Source of the DNA: Minisyncoccota bacterium
GTDB taxonomy: Bacteria; Patescibacteriota; Minisyncoccia; UBA6257; 2-01-FULL-56-20
NCBI GenBank assembly: GCA_035541415.1
Contig: DATKNI010000030.1
Location: 1,621 to 65,620 of the forward strand
DNA: 64,000 nucleotides
Direction of reading: 5' to 3'
Both the position numbers and the translations under genes were made by a program. Positions within the stretch are counted from its first letter, which is position 1, and every line of letters begins with the position of its first letter. Below are positions 44,578 to 62,616 of this stretch, piece by piece. Under the pieces are notes generated by a model, which saw nothing but the letters and a program-made list of their open reading frames with translations, made no database searches and was not told where the DNA came from.

Positions 44578-45138
44578 ATGGGGAAGGTTATTAATGGAGT
44601 GTTTCTCATTGTCCTCGTGGCTGTGTTTGGTTTTGTTTCGTCCGCTTCCGCCCATGTATGGCGGACGGATGGGAATATCACCGTGCTGTTACACGTAAAC
44701 CCTATCGACGCACCAGTCGCAGGACAACCTGCAGAACTTCTTTTCGGCATTACCGATGCCGCAAATCAATTTGCCACTGGCACTTGCCAGTGCAGTGTTG
44801 AGGTATCGGAAAACGGAAAGGTGTTATTGAACAAAGAACTTATCCCTTGGACGGGAGGCCCAAGTTTATTCACCTACGAGATGCCTTTCACATTTCCTAA
44901 TCCGGCGGTCTATAGTATTGTCGTGACGGGCAGTCCCAAGGCGAGCGGGACCTTCCAAAATTTCCAGGTTTCTTACGATGAGCGTGTGGGTAGAAATCCA
45001 AATGACCCCTCTGCCGATTCTGATCCGCTTTTCTATCTCGCGATGGGCGGGGTCGCCGTTTTGATCCTCGGTTCGCTATACTTAACCTATAGACAGGTAA
45101 AAAGAGAATGGAACGAAAATTCATCATCGGAGGCATAG
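44578..45138 (+). CDS. secreted membrane-anchored protein, YcnI/CopC-like with predicted N-terminal His after signal cleavage
   Basis: Signal peptide ending SASA|HVW, a beta-rich body and a C-terminal TM anchor. Paralogous in architecture to the next gene. Confidence 0.4.
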   Translation: MGKVINGVFLIVLVAVFGFVSSASAHVWRTDGNITVLLHVNPIDAPVAGQPAELLFGITDAANQFATGTCQCSVEVSENGKVLLNKELIPWTGGPSLFTYEMPFTFPNPAVYSIVVTGSPKASGTFQNFQVSYDERVGRNPNDPSADSDPLFYLAMGGVAVLILGSLYLTYRQVKREWNENSSSEA

Positions 45139-45701
45139 TGGCAGTAACGTTCGCATTCGCGGGCGCGCACCAAGCGTCCGCCCACGTCATTGTGACGCCA
45201 AGTAGCATAGGCATCGGCACGGATGACGTACCGTTTACGGCTGGCGTTCCCAATGAGAAAAATATTCCCGTCATAGGCCTTAAACTCCTCATTCCGTCAG
45301 GGTTGGCTGATGTTGTGCCAAACGTAAAACCGGGGTGGACGATCGCGGTCAAGAAAAATGGCGATCAGGTTACGGAAATCGATTGGGCTGGCGGCAGTAT
45401 CCCCGTGGGCGAGCGCGACCAGTTTACGTTCAGCGCCCAAGTCCCCGCTGATCCGGCCACGCTGGATTGGAAGGCATACCAGACGTATAAAGATGGGAGT
45501 GTTGTTTCGTGGGATGAGGATCCAAACGATCTTACCGCGACAAATCCTTATTCAGAAACACAAGTCATAGACGATCTTGCCCAAACGCAACCATCGTGGT
45601 TTGCAGAGAACGGGATAGCGCTGAGTTTTGCATTAAGCATCTTGGCTGTAATCATTTCGGCATATGCATTGAGAAAGGCGGCGGCGAACAAACGGCTATA
45701 G
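45108..45701 (+). CDS. YcnI-like (DUF1775) copper-binding cell-surface protein
   Basis: Signal peptide ending ASA|HVIVTP (mature N-terminal His), a DUF1775-like body (KPGWTIAVKKNGD...DW.GG.IP...D.F.F) and a C-terminal TM anchor. Confidence 0.5.
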   Translation: MERKFIIGGIVAVTFAFAGAHQASAHVIVTPSSIGIGTDDVPFTAGVPNEKNIPVIGLKLLIPSGLADVVPNVKPGWTIAVKKNGDQVTEIDWAGGSIPVGERDQFTFSAQVPADPATLDWKAYQTYKDGSVVSWDEDPNDLTATNPYSETQVIDDLAQTQPSWFAENGIALSFALSILAVIISAYALRKAAANKRL

Positions 45702-47958: not shown

Positions 47959-48492
47959 ATGGACTCTGCTTATAAGGGCCAAATTCCCGATTCGGTTTTA
48001 CCGTATCCAAAAGGCCTTTGGAACCGAACTAAATACGCCTTTTGGAAGCTTATTTCCCCGGGGTATGTCCGGGGACGGGACACGCTTTTGCGTTTGGGCA
48101 TTATCCACCATGAAGGGCGGCAGAATTTTCTGATCGGAACATTAGCGCCCGGGGTGAAGCTTGAAGATTTTTTGGTTTATTTAAAAACCCAGCAATTTGG
48201 GAACCATTTTATTGCGTGGGAAGACGATGACGAACTCGTGAGCGTGCGTCGTCTGGATAATTTTGAATGGCAGTATCATCTCCGCGTTTTCAAAGATCGC
48301 GAGGTGCGCGGGCATTATGAGTACACGCCCGAAGCCCATCCGGCATGGCATTCCATGGAAGTGCGCTGGGAACCCCGCCGCGATGACTTCCTTAGGTTCT
48401 TGGGCGATTGGGTTATCCCAAGCAAGACCTTTCCCGAAGCCATCCCGCAAGCCGCGCAGATAAAAGCGCCACTCACAAAAGACGCAAAATAA
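47959..48492 (+). CDS. hypothetical protein
   Basis: 177 aa, AAGGGGG SD upstream, no recognisable motif. Confidence 0.35.
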   Translation: MDSAYKGQIPDSVLPYPKGLWNRTKYAFWKLISPGYVRGRDTLLRLGIIHHEGRQNFLIGTLAPGVKLEDFLVYLKTQQFGNHFIAWEDDDELVSVRRLDNFEWQYHLRVFKDREVRGHYEYTPEAHPAWHSMEVRWEPRRDDFLRFLGDWVIPSKTFPEAIPQAAQIKAPLTKDAK

Positions 48493-48515
48493 AATCTCCG
48501 CCCGCTGCGGAGATT

Positions 48516-49718
48516 TTATTTTCTTACCGGGAAAACGAGATACCAGACTTTTGCCGCAACGTTGCGCGCGGGACCGGTGAGCGGGAAATGATGGATGTCG
48601 ATGAAGGGCAGGCTGTTGCATTCGATGACGCCGCACCGCTGTTTGCGCCACGAGACCGCCATGTCGTTCATGATGAAGTCCACGCCGAAGAGCGGGTCAT
48701 CAACATACCGCGCGATTTTCAAAAAAAGTTCGCAGTTGTCGGGATGGATGGCTTCGATTTCCGTCGTTGACGCGCCGAACGCGCGGCTCACTTTTGGATG
48801 AAGGATGACCATGCGGTCTTTTGCGGGAACGCTCGTGAGCGAAAGATTCTGGCTCGCGAGCACGAGGGGATCAATCGAGAGTTCATGGAACACCGGCCCG
48901 CGACGCAATGGATTTTTATTTTCACGATCAATCAGTTCTTGCACGCTGTGCGTGCCGTCGCCTGTGACGTGCGGCGGTTCGCGGCGCATGACGCCGGCGA
49001 TTTCGCCGCCAACGAGCGTGATGCGGAACACGAATCCCGGCAATTCTTCCTCGACGGCAACCGAAGGCGAAATTTCTTTTGCTTTTGCAAATGCATTCCG
49101 CACGGCTTCTTCCGTCGTGAGATGCAAATACGTGTGGCGGCTCCGCGATCCGAGCGCGGGTTTTATGATGACGGCGTCTGCGCGCCGTGCCGTTACGATT
49201 GAGCGGAAGACTGCTTCGGCTTGCGCAACGTTCGTCACGGATTTGCCAAGCGGCACCGGGATGTCCTGGGCGGCAAAGCGTTCAAGGATGATGCCTTTGT
49301 CGTCCATCCAATCCTGCGCGGTATCGTTCGCGAGGCGCGGCCGGGGAAGGCCGTCGAAGACGCGCGTATCGCCCTCATAGCTTGCAAAATAGATGTTCCG
49401 GGCGAGTCCGAACGGACGGAACTCCCGCATCGCGATGCCGCGGCGCTCGGCTTCCTCCCAGATGACGCGCGTGCGATCCGTGGTTTGGGCGTCGGGATGG
49501 CGCACGATGGTGCCGAGGCGGAGGCGTGCGGCAAGGCCGAAAAGCGGAGGGGCAATGCGGCCGGGTTTGAGCGCTGCGACGGCGGGGCGCACGACGTTCC
49601 AGACGATCTCGGCGGGTTTTGAGATGTAACCAAAAAAAGCGTCCGCGCGGACGTTCCAGCGCTCGATGGCGTGCGACACGGTTGCCGGACCGCAGTCGGG
49701 GCAGGCCGTTTGTTCCAT
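48516..49718 (-). CDS. ATP-grasp enzyme, cyanophycin-synthetase N-terminal-domain-like (stand-alone)
   Basis: 400 aa. ATP-grasp organisation colinear with the CphA N-terminal half (GDG.HSV.ELI...N.P.RRG..HE..L..I....GVDF). No Mur-ligase-type C-terminal domain. Confidence 0.5.
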   Translation of the reverse strand: MEQTACPDCGPATVSHAIERWNVRADAFFGYISKPAEIVWNVVRPAVAALKPGRIAPPLFGLAARLRLGTIVRHPDAQTTDRTRVIWEEAERRGIAMREFRPFGLARNIYFASYEGDTRVFDGLPRPRLANDTAQDWMDDKGIILERFAAQDIPVPLGKSVTNVAQAEAVFRSIVTARRADAVIIKPALGSRSRHTYLHLTTEEAVRNAFAKAKEISPSVAVEEELPGFVFRITLVGGEIAGVMRREPPHVTGDGTHSVQELIDRENKNPLRRGPVFHELSIDPLVLASQNLSLTSVPAKDRMVILHPKVSRAFGASTTEIEAIHPDNCELFLKIARYVDDPLFGVDFIMNDMAVSWRKQRCGVIECNSLPFIDIHHFPLTGPARNVAAKVWYLVFPVRK

Positions 49719-49750
49719 GGCCTCATCATACTGCAGTTTTTTTAATCGTG

Positions 49751-51271
49751 CTATGCGAAACCCGGGAAGAAATCGGTTTTGATCTGCGTGCGAGGGACGC
49801 CGAGTTCGGCGAGCGTTTTCTTAAATTCGCTCACCATGCCGTGCGTGCCTGAAATGTAGAATGTGCGTTCGCGAAAATCGGGAGCGACGCTCTCGATGAG
49901 CTTCATGTCGATGCGGCCGATGCGGCCGTTGTGGCTCGGAGCTTTCGCCGCGGGATCGGTAATGGCGTAGACCGTGCGAAGCCCCCATTTTTTTTCGGCT
50001 TCATCAAAAATGTCCCGATATGCGATTTCGTTTTCATTGCGGTTCGAATAGAAGAGGATCGCGTCGCGCCGTTCGTTCATATCGGAAATATATTTCGCCA
50101 TGCTGCGGAACGGCGTGATGCCGATGCCGCCCGCGATGAAGATCAATTTCTTTTTGGGATCGTTCGGGAGCGTGAAATCGCCGGCGAGCTGTCCCGCAAC
50201 GATGGTTTCGCCGGGTTTGAGGTTCATGAGCGCGAACTTGAATGTACTCGAGTTTTCATAGAACTTCACGCCCAGGTGAACTTCCGGTTCGGTGGGAGAC
50301 GAAGCAATCGTAAAATAACGGCGATTGCCGCGGGTGTCTGCTTTCTGGTGCGCGAGCGTCCACTCAAGATATTGGCCGGGACGATGGTTGATTTTTGCAT
50401 CAGGCGCAAACTGGAAGTCGTCCATATCTTTTCCAACTTCGTGCTTGCCTTTCATGGTGAGCATGAACTTGCGCTTGGGACTTACGACATAGGAGAAGAC
50501 GTTGCCCGTGACGAGCGCGAGTTCCGGAATGGAATAGACGGCGCCCACATGGACATATGGAGAATAGAGGAGGCCGACGATTACGCCGTAGATGACGCGG
50601 AGCGTGCGGGTCGGCGGCGTTGTTAAGGGTTCCGTGAGCATGATCGTGCCGAAGAAGAAGATTGGCGTGTGGAGGACGATGCGCTGGATCGTGCCCCAGG
50701 GATCGAATATCGGGGCGAGCGCGATGCAGCTCACGATTGCGGCGGCGAAGAATGAAAGGAAGAGGTCGAAGCGCTGGAGCTTGCGAACGATGAGGAGGCC
50801 GCCCACGATGACGAATGCCATCATAGGGAGATTGCCGCCGACCCACCAGCTTGCATACTGATTGAGCGCGAAACCGGTGATGACGACGGCGAGCGCTGCA
50901 GGATTAAAGACGTGTTTCTTGCCGATAGCGATGATGTATTTCGAGGCCATCGCGATGAGGGCGGCGGCGAGGAGAAGTTCGATGTTCTGCAGCGCCCACG
51001 TTCCGGGCGTAATAATGAGCGCAAGAATGAGTCCCGTGAGATACGCCGATTCAACGCTCGGCTGGGCGCCCCATACTTTTGCAAAAATGATGTTAATAAT
51101 CCAGCAGGATCCCAAAAGGAAAAATGCCGTGAAGAGAATCGCGACGGGGCTGTAGGGGAGGATGCCGAGAGCTCCGAGAATGGCGGCGATCACAACATAC
51201 GCCTCAAGAATATAGAGGAGAAGGCGGTACATCGTTATCTTGTTGAGCAGGCGATCAATGAGTGCGATCAT
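49751..51271 (-). CDS. polytopic-membrane oxidoreductase with a C-terminal ferredoxin-NADP+-reductase-like FAD/NAD(P)-binding module
   Basis: N-terminal ~270 aa with 8 or more TM helices. The C-terminal FNR fold has RYFTIASSP (RxYS FAD motif) and LIFIAGGIGITPF (NAD(P)H motif). Confidence 0.6.
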   Translation of the reverse strand: MIALIDRLLNKITMYRLLLYILEAYVVIAAILGALGILPYSPVAILFTAFFLLGSCWIINIIFAKVWGAQPSVESAYLTGLILALIITPGTWALQNIELLLAAALIAMASKYIIAIGKKHVFNPAALAVVITGFALNQYASWWVGGNLPMMAFVIVGGLLIVRKLQRFDLFLSFFAAAIVSCIALAPIFDPWGTIQRIVLHTPIFFFGTIMLTEPLTTPPTRTLRVIYGVIVGLLYSPYVHVGAVYSIPELALVTGNVFSYVVSPKRKFMLTMKGKHEVGKDMDDFQFAPDAKINHRPGQYLEWTLAHQKADTRGNRRYFTIASSPTEPEVHLGVKFYENSSTFKFALMNLKPGETIVAGQLAGDFTLPNDPKKKLIFIAGGIGITPFRSMAKYISDMNERRDAILFYSNRNENEIAYRDIFDEAEKKWGLRTVYAITDPAAKAPSHNGRIGRIDMKLIESVAPDFRERTFYISGTHGMVSEFKKTLAELGVPRTQIKTDFFPGFA

Positions 51272-51283
51272 AGTGCCGTTTGT

Positions 51284-52033
51284 TTAATCGGGTCGGGCGA
51301 CATACGTCTCGAAGCCGGATGTCATGGTTGCTGTCTTATTATTATCTATCATATATCCTTCGAGTCCAGGAATGTTTTCGATGAAATGTATGGCGGCTTT
51401 GCCCATGGCAAATGCCGCCGTTGCGAACCGGTCAGCCTCGTAGATGTTCGGGCCGATGACGGTGAGGCTCACGATCTCGTCGATCGGTTTGCCGTCGCGC
51501 GGATTATAAATATGGAGGCCGCGGATGTACGTGCCCGAGGTGGCGACGCCTTCGGTTTTAACGCGCATGACTTTGACGTTCTCCGCTTCATTCCACGGAT
51601 TTTTGATTCCCACGGTCCACAATTTCCCTTCGGCATTCATGCCGTGTGGCTGAATATCGCCTCCGGCATCAACATAAAAATTCTTGAAGCCGTTCTTAAG
51701 GATGAGCTGTGCGGCATTCCAAATGGCCCAGCCCTTCACGAGGCCCGAAGGATCATACGTTCCGTTCGGCGTTTTGATATCAAAGTATCCGTTTGTCTCG
51801 CGCTTTGTTTCCTCGGAAAGCATGAAGACCAGTCTCATTTCCTCGCTCCAATCTTTTTCCGCGAGGCGCCCTTCGTTGATTGCCGTGATCTCACTCGTCT
51901 TTTTATAGGTGCTGAATTTTTCGTCGATATATTTGAAGTAGCCATATATTTCTTCGAATATGGCTTCGTCTGCGTGCGGGTCGACAATCTCAACCGCTAT
52001 GGGCATTCCCATGAGAACGCGAATCTGCTTCAT
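51284..52033 (-). CDS. apbE: FAD:protein FMN transferase
   Basis: 249 aa ApbE fold (GMPIAVEIVD..., D.GGIAKGWA-type core, ...GDI...G.N..G..W.VGI..P). 12-nt gap to the downstream gene. Confidence 0.75.
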   Translation of the reverse strand: MKQIRVLMGMPIAVEIVDPHADEAIFEEIYGYFKYIDEKFSTYKKTSEITAINEGRLAEKDWSEEMRLVFMLSEETKRETNGYFDIKTPNGTYDPSGLVKGWAIWNAAQLILKNGFKNFYVDAGGDIQPHGMNAEGKLWTVGIKNPWNEAENVKVMRVKTEGVATSGTYIRGLHIYNPRDGKPIDEIVSLTVIGPNIYEADRFATAAFAMGKAAIHFIENIPGLEGYMIDNNKTATMTSGFETYVARPD

Positions 52034-52069
52034 ATCGTTGCGGAATTATATGCGGGAGGCCGGCCGATG

Positions 52070-52612
52070 TTAGCTTTTGGCCTGCGAGAGCGCTGATGCG
52101 AGCGATTGTTGGAATGCCTGGCTGGTTTGCGTTGCGCCGGAAACGATGTCTACGGTGGCGCTCTGCGAAGCAATAGCTTCCTTTTTGAGCTGGGGGATTG
52201 CCATGCTGCTTACTTCGCTCGTATGCCCCGGTTCGTTAGGGTATTTGAGGAATTTTACATCCGTGAGCTTGCCGCCGCTCACGACCGCCGCCACTTGGAC
52301 CGTGCCATAAAATGCGTCAGCTGCGCTGCCCGTGTAGGTGCCGTTCCGATATTGGCCCGTTGAGCCTGTTCCGCCCGTTGAGCCTGTTCCGCCGGTCGAG
52401 GTTGTTACGGTTGAGCCAGTAGTTGTTCCGTTCCCATTCCCGGTTCCTCCGGCTGTCGTTGTCTGGTTGGAGCCGGTGCTGGTGCTGTCCGTCCCGCCAT
52501 TATTGGCGGCGACTTGCGAGTTTGAATCGCCATTTTGCCCGTTAAAAATAATATAGCCGGCGATAAGCACGACTACGGCAATCCCGAGAATATATTTCCA
52601 GGCGTTTTTCAT
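52070..52612 (-). CDS. FMN-binding domain protein (NqrC/RnfG-like), membrane-anchored, with a flavinylation motif
   Basis: ATG at 52610-52612 (MKNAWKYILGIAVVVL TM anchor), a G/S/T-rich linker and an FMN_bind domain ending in VDIVSGATQTSQAF, the S/T flavinylation site used by ApbE. Confidence 0.7.
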   Translation of the reverse strand: MKNAWKYILGIAVVVLIAGYIIFNGQNGDSNSQVAANNGGTDSTSTGSNQTTTAGGTGNGNGTTTGSTVTTSTGGTGSTGGTGSTGQYRNGTYTGSAADAFYGTVQVAAVVSGGKLTDVKFLKYPNEPGHTSEVSSMAIPQLKKEAIASQSATVDIVSGATQTSQAFQQSLASALSQAKS

Positions 52613-52693
52613 GCTTGTATTCCTATTTATACGTTTTACGATGGCGTTTTGGTTCGTAAGCAGTATATCATAATATCCGCTATAATAAGAGCC

Positions 52694-54652
52694 ATGTTGA
52701 CCGAAAAACCCATCAACCCCGACGATCTCGACCATGCCGTACGTCCGGGTGACGATTTCTTTGGTTACGTAAACAATATCTGGATCCGCAAAAACCCGAT
52801 TCCGGCAAATGAGGCCCGCTGGGGGACTTTTTATGTTTTGCGGTACGAGGTTGAGGAGCAGATCAAAAAAATTTTTGAAGGACTGGTCGCCACGCCCGCC
52901 GGGAAGCTCGACGACTCCGGGAAAAAAGTGAAATATTTTTATGAAAGCGGCATGGATGTCGATCATGTGAACGCGGAAGGCGATGCGCCGCTCGCGCCGC
53001 TCCTCGATGCCGTGAACGGCATTCACGACGTGAACGACCTCGTGCGGACGATCGGCTTTTTGCATCGCCGCGGAATCGGCGTTTTTTGGGCGCCGAGTCC
53101 CGAACCGGACGCAAAATCAAGCGACCGGACGGCGCTCTATTTTTCCCAGGCAGGGCTCAGCTTGCCCGACCGCGATTATTATGTGAATGCCGACGAGAAG
53201 AGCGTTGCGATCCGGAAACGGTACGCGGACTACGCCGCCCTCATGCTCGCACATTCTTCGATAGCAGCCGATGCCCAGCAGTTTTCAAAAATAAATGATA
53301 TCGAAAAGACGCTCGCGAAACATTCGATGACGCGCGTTGAACTTCGTGATTTCGAAAAGCAATATAACAAAATGTCGTGGGAAGAGCTTTCGAAACGCGC
53401 TCCGCACATTGACTGGAACATCTATTGCGAGGCGATTGCCATTCGCAAGCCGGAGTTTGTGATCGTGTGCCAGCCGGAGTTTATGGCGGCGGTGAGCGAG
53501 CTATTCCAATCTGTTCCGCTCGAATCGCTCAAAGCTTACCTGCGATGGCAGGTGCTCAATGCGATGTCGAATTTCTTAAGCGAAGATTTTGCCCACCGCT
53601 CGTTCGAGTTTTACGGCAAGACGTTCGGCGGCGCCACGGAGATCAAGCCGCGGTGGCGCCGCGTTTTGAATGTGGTGAACGGCATGCTCGATCAGGCCGT
53701 CGCCAAACTTTATGTCGAGCGCCATTTCAGCGCGGCGGCAAAGACGAGAGTCAATCAGCTCGTCGACCATTTGACGGAAGCGTATCGTGCCCGCATCAAG
53801 CGCCTCGATTGGATGAGCGACGCCACAAAAGAGAAGGCGCTTACCAAGCTGAACGCGATCAGCCGCAAGCTCGGCTATCCTGACGTGTGGCGCGATATCT
53901 CGGCGCTCACGATTGTTCCCGGCGCATATCTCGAGAACCGCCTGAACGCGCATATTTTTGAATTCGACCGGCAGATGAAAAAAATCGGCAAGCCCGTGGA
54001 CCGTTCCGAGTGGCTCATCTCGCCGCAAACGGTAAACGCGTTCTATCTTGGGCTTCAAAATGAAATCGATTTTCCGGCAGCGATTCTCCAGCCGCCGTTC
54101 TTTTATCCCGACGGCGATGACGCCGTGAACTTTGGCGGCATCGGCATGGCAATCGGCCACGAGCTTACTCACGGGTTCGACGATGAGGGCTCGCGCTTCG
54201 ATGCCAACGGGAATCTCACGAATTGGTGGACCGAAGACGACCGCGCGCGATTCGACAAGCTCACGGCGCGCCTCGCCGCGCAATTCGATGCCTACGAACT
54301 TCTGCCGGGCCTTCGCGTGAACGGCAAGCTCACGCTTGGTGAAAATATTGCCGACCTCGGCGGATTGCTGATCGCCTACGACGGGCTCACTTTGGCGCTC
54401 AAGGAAAATCCCGTGGGCGCTATTGACGGCTTTACGCCCTTTGAGCGGTTTTTCATCAGTTATGCCATCACCGAACGCTCCGTAGCGCGTGAGGAAGCCT
54501 TGCGGACGCAGGTCCAAACGGATCCGCATACGCCCGCGCCGTATCGCGTGAACGGCCCGCTTCCCAACATGGATGAATTTTATGAGGCATTTGACTGCAA
54601 ACCGGGCGATGCGCTCTGGCGGGATCCAAAGGACCGGGTGAAGATCTGGTGA
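52694..54652 (+). CDS. M13-family zinc metalloendopeptidase (PepO/neprilysin-like)
   Basis: HELTHGFDDEG (HExxH) and the downstream E...D/NAFY motifs; about 650 aa from ATG 52694. Confidence 0.85.
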   Translation: MLTEKPINPDDLDHAVRPGDDFFGYVNNIWIRKNPIPANEARWGTFYVLRYEVEEQIKKIFEGLVATPAGKLDDSGKKVKYFYESGMDVDHVNAEGDAPLAPLLDAVNGIHDVNDLVRTIGFLHRRGIGVFWAPSPEPDAKSSDRTALYFSQAGLSLPDRDYYVNADEKSVAIRKRYADYAALMLAHSSIAADAQQFSKINDIEKTLAKHSMTRVELRDFEKQYNKMSWEELSKRAPHIDWNIYCEAIAIRKPEFVIVCQPEFMAAVSELFQSVPLESLKAYLRWQVLNAMSNFLSEDFAHRSFEFYGKTFGGATEIKPRWRRVLNVVNGMLDQAVAKLYVERHFSAAAKTRVNQLVDHLTEAYRARIKRLDWMSDATKEKALTKLNAISRKLGYPDVWRDISALTIVPGAYLENRLNAHIFEFDRQMKKIGKPVDRSEWLISPQTVNAFYLGLQNEIDFPAAILQPPFFYPDGDDAVNFGGIGMAIGHELTHGFDDEGSRFDANGNLTNWWTEDDRARFDKLTARLAAQFDAYELLPGLRVNGKLTLGENIADLGGLLIAYDGLTLALKENPVGAIDGFTPFERFFISYAITERSVAREEALRTQVQTDPHTPAPYRVNGPLPNMDEFYEAFDCKPGDALWRDPKDRVKIW

Positions 54653-54740
54653 TCGCGCCCGCATTCCGGCTTTTATTTTAGATAAATTTAATCTGCGGCG
54701 TGGAGAATGAGAAGGTCGAATAAATAAAAAATTCACGCTT

Positions 54741-55877
54741 ATGAAAAAATATTGCGCCGCGCTTGCGGCAGCCGTGGTTTTGGTTGTGCCGGGGTTTCCC
54801 GTCGGTCAAATGCAAATCGCTTCCGTCGAGGCGAGCTATCACTTTGCGAATTATCTGGGCGCTCCGCCGATCCATATTTTCCGATCGGCGCAGAAATCGC
54901 CGAGCGGCCTCACGCCGCTTGAGATAAAGCATATTTATAATCTCCCGCTCACGGGAGGCGCAAGCAGTACGATTGCGCTTGTCGAGGCCTATTCCGCGCC
55001 AACGCTCGAAAGCGATCTGGGCGTCTTTGACGACACCTATTCGCTTGCGCCGTGCACCGTAAAGAATAAATGTCTTGAGATCCACAGCATGGGGAGTGGC
55101 GTCGCCGCGAATGGCGGATGGGCGCTCGAAACAACGCTCGACGTGGAATGGGCGCATGCCATCGCCCCGCAAGCAAAAATCCTGGTCGTACAGGCAAAAA
55201 CGCAGAGCGGCGCGAATCTGCTCGCTGCGCTCGATTATGCAGCGGCCCGAAGCGACGTCGATGCGATTTCGATAAGCTGGGGCGGTCCTGAGTTTCCGGA
55301 AGAAACATCGCTCGACGGGCATTTTTTGAGCGCTTCGGGCGCGGCATTTTTCGCGTCATCCGGTGACCACGGCGCCGGCACGAGTTGGCCCGCGGCATCG
55401 CCGAACGTAGTTGCGGTCGGAGGAACCTCGCTTGAACTCTTGCCGAGCGGCTCGCTTGTTTCTGAATCGGCGTGGGCCGGAAGCGGGGGAGGAGTAAGCG
55501 CCTATGAGCCCGAGCCGGATTATCAGCGCGCGTACAATATTCCGAAAGCCAGCGGCCATCGCGCGATTCCGGATGTTGCATACAACGCCAATCCGCGATC
55601 GGGATATGCGGTTTACAAATCGAACGGCGCCACAAAGAACGGCTGGTATGTCGTTGGCGGCACGTCGGCGGGGGCTCCTCAATGGGCGGCCATCTACGCG
55701 ATCGGCCGTTCGGCAACGCTCCCGGTCATGTACGGAGATAAAGCTTCGTCGGGCACGCTGCAATATTTCCGGGACATTGCGAGCGGCGCAAATGGCACGT
55801 GTAAATATTATTGCGACGCGCGGAAACGATACGACTACGTAACCGGCTTAGGAACGCCGCTCACGGTTCATTTTTAA
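54741..55877 (+). CDS. S53 (sedolisin)-family serine-carboxyl peptidase, secreted
   Basis: Signal peptide, ETTLDVEWAHAIAP (Glu/Asp catalytic region), GGTSAGAPQWAA (catalytic Ser in GTSxxAP). Short for S53, so a minimal catalytic domain. Confidence 0.6.
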   Translation: MKKYCAALAAAVVLVVPGFPVGQMQIASVEASYHFANYLGAPPIHIFRSAQKSPSGLTPLEIKHIYNLPLTGGASSTIALVEAYSAPTLESDLGVFDDTYSLAPCTVKNKCLEIHSMGSGVAANGGWALETTLDVEWAHAIAPQAKILVVQAKTQSGANLLAALDYAAARSDVDAISISWGGPEFPEETSLDGHFLSASGAAFFASSGDHGAGTSWPAASPNVVAVGGTSLELLPSGSLVSESAWAGSGGGVSAYEPEPDYQRAYNIPKASGHRAIPDVAYNANPRSGYAVYKSNGATKNGWYVVGGTSAGAPQWAAIYAIGRSATLPVMYGDKASSGTLQYFRDIASGANGTCKYYCDARKRYDYVTGLGTPLTVHF

Positions 55878-61596: not shown

Positions 61597-62514
61597 CTAG
61601 AATCTAAAGAGGCTGAGCTGGATGAGGCGTGAACGGAGGAGGTCGAGAATCTGCGATGGCGGCAGGACGAAGCGGCGGATGGCCACGGTTACCGTCTGGC
61701 CGCCTCCGGCGCGGCTTACCGTAAAGCTCGCGCCGTCATTGCCGAGCGGCGATGGTGCTGCGAGAACACTCCCATTCCGCGAAATCATCGTGACTTCTTT
61801 TGCGCCGGTTTGCGCAATCGTCTGATGTACGCCGTTCACGGCGGCCGCTCCTTCCGAGAATGAAATGCTCCCGAAGTTGTCGAGCGGCAGGGTGCCGACA
61901 TTCGAGCTTGGCATTTCTTGGATCCATTCCGCGGATGAATGATCGGAATTATAGGACAGGTCGAGGTGATCGGTGTCGCCGGTCGTATTGTTTCTATAGG
62001 AAACCCGCCACGTGCCCGGATCCGATTCCTCGAGCGATACGCTTATTGAGTCGCCGGCGTGCACCGGGAAAGAAATCTGTTGCATGTCGTCGGGCAGCAA
62101 TTCGTACCAGGCGGCGTAGCGTACCGAACCATTCGGGTCGGTGATCGCCTGGGTGCCGGCTTGGATGAGATTGTGGCCGGTGACGCCGCCGATGCCTACC
62201 CACGTTGCGTCGGCCGAGGTTCGGTCCGCGCTTGGAACGGAAGGAATGGTCCACGTTCCGCCGACCGCCGTAAAGGATCCTTCCGTTGAAACGTAGCCCG
62301 CCCAGTTGAGCGACTCATTCGAATTGACGCCGGAATCCGGCGCGCTCGGGTATTGCGGATAAACAATCTGCGCGATTTGCGGACCGTCGTTTGTTCGGGA
62401 AAATGAGAGCCACGAAAATGGAAGCGAGAGCTGCGGGAATGGCGCTGCGAATGCCATAATAGGCATGGCAGCAGCGATGACTGCGGCCGCGAGCATTCGT
62501 AATAGAGTCTTCAT
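61597..62514 (-). CDS. G1-family glutamic peptidase (eqolisin/scytalidoglutamic peptidase-like), secreted
   Basis: Signal peptide plus colinear G1 motifs: SLNWAGYV, ATWVGIGG...LIQAG (catalytic Gln), YAAWYELLP, AGDSISV, SAEWIQE (catalytic Glu). Confidence 0.7.
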   Translation of the reverse strand: MKTLLRMLAAAVIAAAMPIMAFAAPFPQLSLPFSWLSFSRTNDGPQIAQIVYPQYPSAPDSGVNSNESLNWAGYVSTEGSFTAVGGTWTIPSVPSADRTSADATWVGIGGVTGHNLIQAGTQAITDPNGSVRYAAWYELLPDDMQQISFPVHAGDSISVSLEESDPGTWRVSYRNNTTGDTDHLDLSYNSDHSSAEWIQEMPSSNVGTLPLDNFGSISFSEGAAAVNGVHQTIAQTGAKEVTMISRNGSVLAAPSPLGNDGASFTVSRAGGGQTVTVAIRRFVLPPSQILDLLRSRLIQLSLFRF

Positions 62515-62616
62515 GTTTAAACTAGTACGCCTGGATTTTGGGAATTGTTTCATTTCGCGGCGCGGTGCGTATTATAACGATACTTGCTTATTCGTGGTCG
62601 ACTATAAATTATTTCT

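Follow-up and report, generated by a model that had tools for sequence, protein, structure and literature searches.

A predicted NQR/RNF-like flavin cassette and its facultative ATP-grasp neighbour in a Candidatus Paceibacterota bacterium

Genes and features of the locus

We analyzed a locus of four minus-strand open reading frames (ORFs) from a Candidatus Paceibacterota (CPR) bacterium. It lies in a 64-kb stretch of DNA, referred to below as the window. The coordinates and the intergenic gaps of 36, 12 and 32 nt given by a first-pass annotation were all confirmed, and the motifs it quoted (RYFTIASSP, GGIGITPF and SGAT) were located in the translations. The locus comprises the following features:

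52070–52612, minus strand: FMN_bind gene, 180 aa counted from the Met before the transmembrane (TM) anchor; TM anchor (aa 7–25), then a Ser/Thr/Gly-rich linker and the FMN_bind domain (aa 102–175)
52130–52150, minus strand: flavinylation motif D-I-V-S-G-A-T, aa 155–161 of the FMN_bind protein
51284–52033, minus strand: ApbE gene, 249 aa
49751–51271, minus strand: membrane domain/FNR fusion gene, 506 aa
50477–51271, minus strand: NqrB/RnfD-like membrane domain, aa 1–265 of the fusion
49751–50476, minus strand: FNR-type FAD/NAD(P)H module, aa 266–506 of the fusion, including the stop codon (49751–49753)
48516–49718, minus strand: ATP-grasp gene, 400 aa
48486–48522, strand not applicable: hairpin with a 16-bp stem where the ATP-grasp and small genes converge, between their stop codons
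47959–48492, plus strand: convergent orphan gene, 177 aa (homologues 124–181 aa)

With hundreds of full-length homologues for every one of them, the four minus-strand ORFs are real genes rather than chance ORFs. The hairpin is likely a bidirectional terminator closing a four-gene transcript. No comparable hairpin was found in the 32-nt gap between the fusion and ATP-grasp genes. The domain searches proposed by the annotation returned PF04205, PF02424 and PF00175 together with a weak FAD_binding_6 match; the ATP-grasp protein matched TIGR02068 and no Pfam family.

Domain architecture of the encoded proteins

The product of the FMN_bind gene matches PF04205 (E = 1.2e-9) and, weakly, NqrC, RnfG and PplA. 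We assign it from its sequence as a membrane-anchored, extracytoplasmic FMN_bind protein of the NqrC/RnfG type. The 40 homologues examined have a basic N-terminal start, mostly MKK, followed by a hydrophobic anchor of ~19 residues, and the mean charges flanking the anchor favor an N-in orientation. The homologue from one related locus (L092) carries a PG_binding_1 domain inserted between anchor and FMN_bind domain. Because of this insertion and the N-in anchor pattern, the subunit is predicted to face outward. The motif D-I-V-S-G-A-T fits the minimal ApbE recognition motif D-x-x-[S/T]-G-A-[S/T] (PMC12052999) perfectly, with Thr161 (52130–52132) as the predicted FMN attachment site. A motif of the type x-x-x-[STG]-G-[AS]-[ST] is retained within the last 60 residues of all 44 FMN_bind homologues, in agreement with the flavinylatable threonine proposed earlier. 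The motif had also been described as the end of the protein; it is followed by 19 further residues.

The second gene product matches ApbE (PF02424, E = 1.2e-38) as well as E. coli ApbE (PDB-entry 4xgw, E = 1.1e-18). It keeps the catalytic motifs ATSGTY, DAGGDI, EADRFAT and the histidine of LHIYNP, and is predicted to be a compact ApbE FAD:protein FMN transferase. Neither a signal peptide nor a lipobox was found in its 249 residues, and the ORF cannot be extended. About 45 ApbE homologues likewise begin with MK(Q/E)TRxxMGMP and have no hydrophobic N-terminus. An ApbE without a signal poorly fits an exported FMN_bind substrate, which is puzzling.

The membrane domain of the fusion protein contains ~10 hydrophobic segments by hydropathy, refining the eight or more TM segments noted before. 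Its predicted topology is N-in/C-in, and basic residues are concentrated in the loops predicted to be cytoplasmic (positive-inside pattern). In hmmscan the window protein itself falls below PF03116, a domain that its homologues carry. A profile of the fusion family (alignment A2) matched RnfD (8ahx_D, E = 1.4e-6) and NqrB (7xk3_B, E = 3.8e-5). In this profile alignment, NqrB residues 209–272, located between two aligned blocks, correspond to only ~16 query residues. Judged from the homologues and the profile search, the domain is an NqrB/RnfD homologue that lacks the covalent-FMN loop; the same conclusion was reached for such fusions by Huang et al. (PMC11334425). The C-terminal module, assigned as a cytoplasmic FNR-type FAD/NAD(P)H module, matches NAD_binding_1 (PF00175, E = 2e-15) and weakly FAD_binding_6 (PF00970, E = 0.0036). 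Among the structures it matches in the PDB (E = 1e-10 to 1e-14) are NADH-cytochrome b5 reductase, flavohaemoglobin and the FAD/NADH domain of NqrF. RYFTIASSP occupies residues 318–326 and GGIGITPF residues 381–388 of the fusion. No Fe-S domain was found in the module.

The fourth product matches the cyanophycin synthetase model TIGR02068 with E = 3.4e-50 and 170.9 bits, far below the 850-bit cutoff of that model. The alignment covers CphA residues 161–473, i.e. the G domain; the colinearity with the N-terminal half of CphA proposed earlier holds for this domain and not for the whole half. The protein matches CphA1 (PDB-entry 7lgm) with E = 1.5e-30, and a Foldseek search with its AF2 model (pLDDT 90.6) returned CphA1, CphA2 and GshAB with TMq of 0.58–0.70. 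It resembles a stand-alone G domain of cyanophycin synthetase, sharing the fold and 23–27% identity with the G domains of CphA1/CphA2 and the ATP-grasp domain of GshAB. CphA and GshAB couple an amino acid to the carboxylate of a peptide. The window protein differs from them in being a stand-alone protein of 400 residues, in its unique three-helix region at the N-terminus and in its CPDCG motif; unlike CphA, it has neither the M (Mur-ligase-like) nor the N domain.

Conservation of the cassette and alternative readings

The gene order FMN_bind, ApbE, fusion was found in 31 of the 50 related loci with at least 1.4 kb of upstream DNA. The best 120 protein matches to the fusion were all fusions of full length, and relatives of it are encoded in 506 metagenome stretches. 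Around the cassettes of the related loci we found no other recurrent gene family, and in particular none of Nqr/Rnf subunits. We assign FMN_bind, ApbE and fusion as a three-gene cassette and an example of the predicted NQR/RNF-like system defined by Méheust et al. (2021, eLife, PMC8238504), whose architecture was modeled with AlphaFold-multimer by Huang et al. (2024, mSystems, PMC11334425). The first-pass annotation knew of no characterized system with this composition; for the three-gene part, this predicted system is a published parallel.

The ATP-grasp enzyme had been regarded as an integral fourth component, its product (a peptide, polyamino acid or modified substrate) serving as redox partner or substrate of the shuttle. 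The gene lies on the same strand, 32 nt from the fusion gene, and the sole strong hairpin follows it. The fusion/ATP-grasp adjacency recurs in six loci (the window, L084, L089, L092, L094 and L096), always on the same strand, 16–100 nt downstream and with no terminator between. The flanks are of two kinds, gyrB/M13 peptidase (window, L084, L089 and L094) and M3 peptidase (L092 and L096). At least 22 ATP-grasp homologues moreover share their longest-contig size with a fusion homologue, some of these contigs being only 4–10 kb. However, none of 83 more distant cassette loci (33–61% identity) contains the ATP-grasp gene, although 52 of them have at least 1.3 kb downstream and hence room for it. 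In the syntenic loci L004 and L095, with gyrB upstream of the cassette (and an M13 peptidase gene in L095), the cassette is followed by the convergent small gene and the ATP-grasp gene is missing. ATP-grasp homologues of 46–54% identity lie in a thrS-miaA-gatB context or next to pilM and a ComF-like gene, and no known chemistry joins a CphA-G-type ligase to flavin electron transfer. The four genes are thus not co-conserved in relatives, an outcome that the first-pass annotation had itself named as speaking against its proposal, and a conserved four-gene unit is not supported. We consider a functional unit of all four genes improbable. Fusion and ATP-grasp genes do lie next to each other, but in a single sub-clade of the Paceibacteria, where the ATP-grasp gene is a lineage-specific, facultative downstream neighbour that is probably co-transcribed with the cassette. 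Since the sub-clade keeps it on the same strand and at short distance in two flanking contexts, a clade-specific functional link may exist. The gene found most consistently beside the ATP-grasp gene is the small convergent one, an orphan confined to Paceibacteria-type CPR.

Two further readings concern the cassette itself. The membrane protein could be an ordinary subunit, the NqrB/RnfD of a complete Nqr or Rnf ion pump whose other subunits are encoded elsewhere in the genome, in line with its homology to RnfD and NqrB and with several database annotations of homologues as 'RnfABCDGE type electron transport complex subunit D'. Against this, an FNR module is fused to it and the flavinylation loop is missing, no Nqr/Rnf subunit family recurs around related loci, and the published survey places such systems among partial, unidirectional ones. 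None of the remaining polytopic membrane ORFs in the window is an Nqr/Rnf subunit, in line with the missing core subunits noted before; the statement that core subunits are lacking altogether has to be amended for the membrane domain, itself an NqrB/RnfD homologue. We give the ordinary-subunit reading hardly any weight. The other reading leaves the electron shuttle unchanged and places flavinylation in the cytoplasm: the signal-less ApbE would act on the FMN_bind pre-protein, at its D-x-x-S-G-A-T motif and ahead of its export by Sec, or on another cytoplasmic target. The missing signal peptide in ~45 loci and the intact catalytic motifs of the ApbE are in favor, as are the sufficiency of the seven-residue motif for ApbE and the existence of cytoplasmic ApbEs (PMC12052999). 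Such a route would need no flavin outside the cell, as compared with Listeria, where, according to PMC9973259, a dedicated ECF transporter system serves to acquire flavin and to traffic it out of the cytosol. On the other hand, FMN-threonine would have to pass through SecYEG, the periplasmic ApbE of Salmonella is not replaceable by a cytosolic one, and visual inspection of the fusion sequence and of alignments A1 and A2 gave no alternative motif in that protein. Cytoplasmic flavinylation appears possible, if rather unlikely.

Related systems and proposed electron path

We consider it likely that the first three genes encode an Nqr/Rnf-like complex together with its maturation enzyme, and that the ATP-grasp gene stands outside the shuttle. 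The minimal transmembrane shuttle suggested earlier from the same three components is in line with this. The published NQR/RNF-like system is predicted to transfer electrons of NAD(P)H through the membrane onto a flavoprotein on the outer side (PMC8238504, PMC11334425). It has the identical architecture of an NqrB/RnfD-like domain fused to a C-terminal PF00175 module; an FMN_bind subunit of the NqrC/RnfG type and ApbE accompany it, and the NqrB/RnfD flavinylation threonine is missing. According to these papers, which count 127 clusters after a signal-peptide filter, it occurs in CPR and Actinobacteria. Our locus differs in the ApbE without signal peptide and in the downstream ATP-grasp gene, which is not described in their main text.

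Homology to Na+-NQR (NqrA–F) and Rnf (RnfABCDGE) extends to the membrane domain (NqrB/RnfD), the FMN_bind protein (NqrC/RnfG), the FNR module (FAD/NADH domain of NqrF) and the maturation of the FMN carrier by ApbE. The cassette, however, comprises only two subunits, lacking NqrA/D/E and RnfA/B/C/E, a 2Fe-2S domain and the covalent FMN site of the NqrB-like domain. Electrons are predicted to run through it in one direction only, outward, whereas the path in Nqr/Rnf is semicircular and coupled to ion translocation (PMC11334425). Listeria-type extracellular electron transfer (EET; Ndh2, EetA/B, DmkA/B, FmnA/B, PplA) resembles the proposed shuttle: cytosolic NADH is the electron source, and the electrons reach an FMN_bind protein that lies outside a monoderm cell and is flavinylated by an ApbE (FmnB in Listeria). 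PplA matches our FMN_bind protein weakly. In contrast to that system, Ndh2, quinone, EetA/B and FmnA are absent from the cassette, the NqrB-like/FNR fusion takes over the membrane step, and the ApbE is not a lipoprotein.

From these homologies we infer the following path. The cytoplasmic FNR module (FAD) of the fusion would accept a hydride from NAD(P)H, and electrons would then cross the membrane via the NqrB/RnfD-like domain. Since the covalent-FMN loop is deleted, this domain probably carries a non-covalent flavin. The next carrier would be the FMN attached by ApbE to Thr161 of the outward-facing, membrane-anchored FMN_bind subunit, which would hand the electrons to an acceptor outside the cytoplasm. 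For a CPR cell, such a cassette would most likely be an electron sink that regenerates NAD(P)+, or take part in reductive metal or other extracellular chemistry.

Gene organization and domain composition

The four genes lie on the minus strand of the window as listed below. They are separated by gaps of 36 nt (FMN_bind/ApbE), 12 nt (ApbE/fusion) and 32 nt (fusion/ATP-grasp), and the open reading frames agree in place and spacing with the first-pass annotation, which had described them as one operon. All motifs named there were found in the window proteins, and HMM searches returned the proposed domains (FMN_bind, ApbE and NAD_binding_1 confirmed by Pfam). Identical proteins are recorded for a 'Candidatus Paceibacterota bacterium' MAG, which places the organism in the CPR/Patescibacteria.

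Genes of the locus
52070-52612, minus strand: FMN_bind protein, 180 aa from the Met preceding the hydrophobic anchor; Pfam FMN_bind, E=1.2e-9
51284-52033, minus strand: ApbE, 249 aa; PF02424, E=1.2e-38
49751-51271, minus strand: membrane/FNR fusion, 506 aa; NAD_binding_1 (PF00175), E=2e-15, FAD_binding_6 weak
48516-49718, minus strand: ATP-grasp protein, 400 aa; no Pfam match; TIGR02068, E=3.4e-50

The FMN_bind protein begins with a short, mostly basic flank (typically MKK), followed by a 19-residue hydrophobic anchor and a linker rich in Ser, Thr and Gly. This flavinylation substrate is clearly predicted to be exported. Residues 155-161 (DIVSGAT) fit the pattern D-x-x-[S/T]-G-A-[S/T] and form the predicted ApbE substrate motif, so that the flavinylatable threonine proposed earlier is present. 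A motif of this type was found near the C-terminus of 44/44 homologues, with Asp (25), Asn (16), Ser (2) or Glu (1) as first residue. In the variant encoded at the related locus L092 (3852-4580), the anchor and the FMN_bind domain are separated by a peptidoglycan-binding domain (PG_binding_1). The predicted insert independently supports a role of the flavoprotein in the cell wall.

The N-terminal 265 residues of the fusion protein carry no Pfam name, as PF03116 (NQR2_RnfD_RnfE) was below hmmscan reporting. PF03116 is recorded for most fusion homologues at 54-78% identity, and several annotation sources name homologues RnfD or NqrB. A PDB search with a profile of the full-length fusion resulted in matches to the FNR domain only; NqrB and RnfD appeared only with a profile of 30 N-terminal membrane domains (A2), which matched RnfD from A. 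vinelandii (8ahx_D, E=1.4e-6) and NqrB from V. cholerae (7xk3_B, E=3.8e-5). The aligned blocks pair query residues 50-127 with NqrB 134-208 and query residues 144-260 with NqrB 273-393. The 64 NqrB residues in between (209-272) are reduced to about 16 in the query. Thr236 of NqrB, the residue carrying the covalent FMN, is located inside the segment missing from the fusion family, and the sole Ser/Thr remaining in the shortened stretch is not conserved among the homologues. We also considered the motif Q-x-A-S-W-W (residues 138-143) as a vestigial flavinylation site. It was discarded, because its Ser position is occupied by S, T, N, M, I or L across 30 homologues and because it aligns with 'LQMTTW' of RnfD, before the missing region, and not with the flavinylation site.

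Hydropathy indicates about ten hydrophobic segments in the membrane domain. Lys and Arg residues cluster at the N-terminus, in the loops joining segments 4/5, 6/7 and 8/9, and behind segment 10. We read this charge pattern as an N-in/C-in topology, in which the FNR module would be cytoplasmic and the shortened loop would face outward. Matches to the FNR module include cytochrome b5 reductase, flavohaemoglobin and the FAD/NADH domain of NqrF; no Fe-S domain was found in it. Its Y-I-S-G-T-H sequence was rejected as a cytoplasmic ApbE target, since it departs from the pattern D-x-x-[ST]-G-A-[ST]. At one related locus (L090, 4918-6439) the fusion is split into a 339-aa NqrB-like and a 155-aa NAD_binding reading frame. 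The near-identical L089 has an intact fusion, and the split goes back to a frameshift, to pseudogene formation or to an error in assembly.

Relation to the NQR/RNF-like system

Méheust et al. (2021, PMC8238504) defined 'NQR/RNF-like systems' as flavinylation gene clusters containing a PF03116-PF00175 fusion. According to Huang et al. (2024, PMC11334425) the complex consists of two subunits, and its NqrB/RnfD-like domain contains no flavinylation site; in their AlphaFold-multimer model the covalent flavin of the outer subunit sits beside what appears to be a site for a non-covalent flavin on the membrane subunit. Enzymology of the system is not reported in the main text of either paper. The window fusion combines an N-terminal NqrB/RnfD domain, recognized through its homologues and the A2 profile, with a C-terminal PF00175 domain. 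The published definition asks for ApbE and/or FMN_bind within five genes, and here both are immediately upstream (12 and 36 nt). The membrane domain has no conserved flavinylated Thr, as described by Huang et al., whose points are reproduced independently for this locus. Regarding signal features, the FMN_bind protein has its basic start and 19-residue anchor, and ApbE has none.

The locus is a further example of this published, predicted system and not a new kind of system. The reading as a minimal Nqr/Rnf-type shuttle is upheld by sequence comparison, and the system itself is a predicted one. As to the earlier remark on a composition without characterized counterpart, the shuttle part has already been described, as a predicted system. 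In contrast to Na+-NQR and Rnf, the fusion is not accompanied by the other core subunits (NqrA/C/D/E/F or RnfA/B/C/E/G): in line with the first-pass annotation, no Nqr/Rnf subunit was found among the other polytopic membrane reading frames of the 64-kb window, and none recurs in the related loci. From the Listeria-type extracellular electron transfer set (Ndh2 with a C-terminal TM segment, EetA/EetB, DmkA/B, FmnA, PplA and FmnB) only FMN_bind and ApbE are represented.

To assess conservation we assembled a comparative set of 96 loci from a metagenome scan with the fusion-protein alignment (A1), a genome scan and contigs encoding homologues. The single-protein genome scan gave 3 loci; the comparative set was supplied by the A1 scan. 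In the 83 scan loci the fusion is 33-61% identical to that of the window. Fifty of these have at least 1.4 kb of upstream sequence, and in 31 of the 50 the order FMN_bind, ApbE, fusion is kept with all three genes on the same strand, mostly just a few bases apart. An all-against-all clustering of 1,819 reading frames from the loci showed no further recurrent family around the cassette, so an electron acceptor is not encoded nearby. The best 120 protein matches all represent full-length fusions, and relatives are encoded on 506 metagenome stretches. This suggests that the three-gene cassette is very common in Paceibacteria-type CPR. By our inference, the published survey, which counted 127 clusters after a signal-peptide filter, probably undercounted the CPR cassette because of that filter.

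The neighbours of the cassette are peptidases, gyrB, an SPFH protein and a DUF1775 protein. Divergent from the cassette, the window encodes an M13 metallopeptidase followed by a 378-aa protein without Pfam match (52535-55877, plus strand). In L084, L089, L094 and L095 the cassette is likewise accompanied in synteny by the M13 gene and gyrB, and an M3 peptidase replaces these two in L092 and L096. About 3 kb from the cassette (44578-45701, plus strand) lie two adjacent genes for predicted secreted or anchored proteins, one of 186 aa without family and one with a DUF1775 domain, presumably YcnI-like and copper-binding. Both are candidates for extracytoplasmic metal handling. The gene at 61597-62553 (minus strand) encodes a peptidase of family A4 (PF01828, E=4e-36); this family is of the eqolisin type and mostly fungal, which makes it an unusual find in a CPR genome.

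The ATP-grasp gene and its neighbourhood

The ATP-grasp protein matches TIGR02068 only over residues 161-473 of CphA, with 170.9 bits against a cutoff of 850. By sequence comparison with solved structures it is nearest to cyanophycin synthetase (7lgm, E=1.5e-30), to CphA2 and to the ATP-grasp portion of GshAB. An AF2 model (pLDDT 90.6) superimposes on CphA1, CphA2 and GshAB at TMq 0.58-0.70, whereas D-Ala-D-Ala ligases, LysX/ArgX and RimK resemble it much less in structure. For the same reason a LysW-like carrier protein, considered as a partner by analogy with LysX/ArgX, found no support. CphA1 (approximately 870-930 aa) needs N, G and M domains, whereas the 400-aa protein comprises a G-like region only. 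These comparisons define it as a CphA G-domain-type enzyme that stands alone, has private N-terminal helices and lacks the M and N domains.

Within the comparative set, the ATP-grasp gene directly follows the fusion on the same strand in one sub-clade, at 57% or higher ATP-grasp identity (window, L084/85, L089/90, L092, L094 and L096). The upstream flank in L092 and L096 is the M3 peptidase gene rather than gyrB/M13, and the block is thus retained in two different settings. For at least 22 ATP-grasp homologues the longest source sequence is equal in size to that of a fusion homologue. None of the 83 scan loci contains the gene; in 52 of them the sequence downstream of the fusion extends for 1.3 kb or more. 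In L004 and L095 the cassette is followed by a convergent small gene with no ATP-grasp gene in between; gyrB is upstream in both, and an M13 peptidase is annotated in L095. Homologues with 54% identity occur in a thrS-miaA-[ATP-grasp]-gatB context (L091, L093), and homologues with 46% identity beside pilM and a ComF-like phosphoribosyltransferase gene (L086-88). As the ATP-grasp gene is absent from relatives, the four genes are not co-conserved where the fourth is concerned, an outcome that the first-pass annotation had named as refuting. Neighbourhood conservation, proposed there as a check, extends to the order of the cassette and not to the ATP-grasp gene, whose coupling is a facultative, lineage-specific adjacency and not part of the cassette. 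The original observation was correct and its interpretation half right.

A hairpin with a 16-bp stem and A/T-run flanks (48486-48522) is located exactly between the convergent stop codons of the ATP-grasp and small genes. It is a probable bidirectional terminator, as judged from its sequence. No comparable hairpin was found in the 32-nt gap between fusion and ATP-grasp gene, and the two are likely co-transcribed in the window lineage. The convergent small gene (47959-48492, 177 aa) is the most constant neighbour of the ATP-grasp gene. Its homologues follow the ATP-grasp gene in all three genomic contexts and the fusion directly in L004 and L095; it is missing in L093.

Two loci encode a set of COX_ARM, COX1, COX3 and COX4_pro proteins approximately 1.5 kb downstream of the four-gene block (L089, 10698-14629; also L090, 9183-13114). 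In CPR, to our knowledge, aerobic terminal oxidases are uncommon. This heme-copper oxidase set could be relevant to the destination of the electrons.

An ApbE without signal sequence and the proposed electron path

The window ApbE scores 133.6 bits against PF02424 (cutoff 25.6). In an alignment with E. coli ApbE the motifs ATSGxY, GGD and (E/A)DxxxT are kept, leaving the FAD/Mg2+ and catalytic motifs intact, and the His of S-H-V-I-D-P/L-H-I-Y-N-P is also retained. The lipoprotein signal peptide typical of ApbE is absent. The reading frame is already the longest possible, with its start only 7 residues ahead of the first conserved strand (MGxP); about 45 homologues start alike (MK(Q/E)TRxxMGMP), directly after the FMN_bind stop codon. 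Neither signal peptide, lipobox, TM segment nor hydrophobic N-terminus was found in ApbE of the window and these approximately 45 related loci. The cassette ApbE looks cytoplasmic. Five loci (L056, L059, L077, L081, L082) have a longer, very divergent ApbE-like gene upstream of the fusion (about 290-330 aa where complete). Their fusions are the most distant ones (33-45% identity), and the ApbE-like proteins with complete N-terminus also have no hydrophobic N-terminus. L059 and five other loci encode a divergent, TM-anchored FMN_bind-like protein of about 200 aa that is not detected by the window protein.

Classical ApbEs are exported lipoproteins, and the known cytoplasmic ApbEs act on cytoplasmic targets (PMC12052999). 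A signal-less ApbE is unmentioned in the main text of the two papers on NQR/RNF-like systems (PMC8238504, PMC11334425), and our literature search returned no paper on ApbE in Patescibacteria. Since a 7-residue motif is enough for ApbE, flavinylation of the still unfolded C-terminal region of the FMN_bind protein before Sec export is conceivable. Export of FAD would then not be needed. Paceibacteria-type organisms are widely seen as fermentative and without an electron-transport chain. A more far-reaching reading, which we consider rather unlikely, is that the cytoplasmic ApbE flavinylates D-x-x-S-G-A-T of the FMN_bind pre-protein before export, that the cassette, abundant in Paceibacteria, is a main, undercounted outlet for NAD(P)H electrons in these organisms, and that in one sub-clade it is co-transcribed with a CphA-G-like ligase.

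Domain identities, motifs, topology and gene linkage were addressed directly by the present analysis. Based on homology to Nqr/Rnf and on the published model we propose the following electron path. NAD(P)H would reduce the FAD of the cytoplasmic FNR module, and the electrons would travel by way of a non-covalent flavin in the NqrB-like domain to the FMN that is covalently attached to Thr161 on the outer FMN_bind subunit, from which an external acceptor would be reduced. Intermediate cofactor, acceptor and physiological role are proposed on the same grounds; regeneration of NAD(P)+ and reductive metal or other extracellular chemistry are likely roles.

For the search for new systems, the four-gene composition is a lineage-specific adjacency and does not point to a new kind of system. 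What remains of interest are the ApbE without signal peptide, the high abundance of this cassette among CPR and the orphan pair of ATP-grasp and small gene. The NQR/RNF-like system, to which the cassette belongs, is the smallest machine predicted to carry electrons from NAD(P)H out of the cell.
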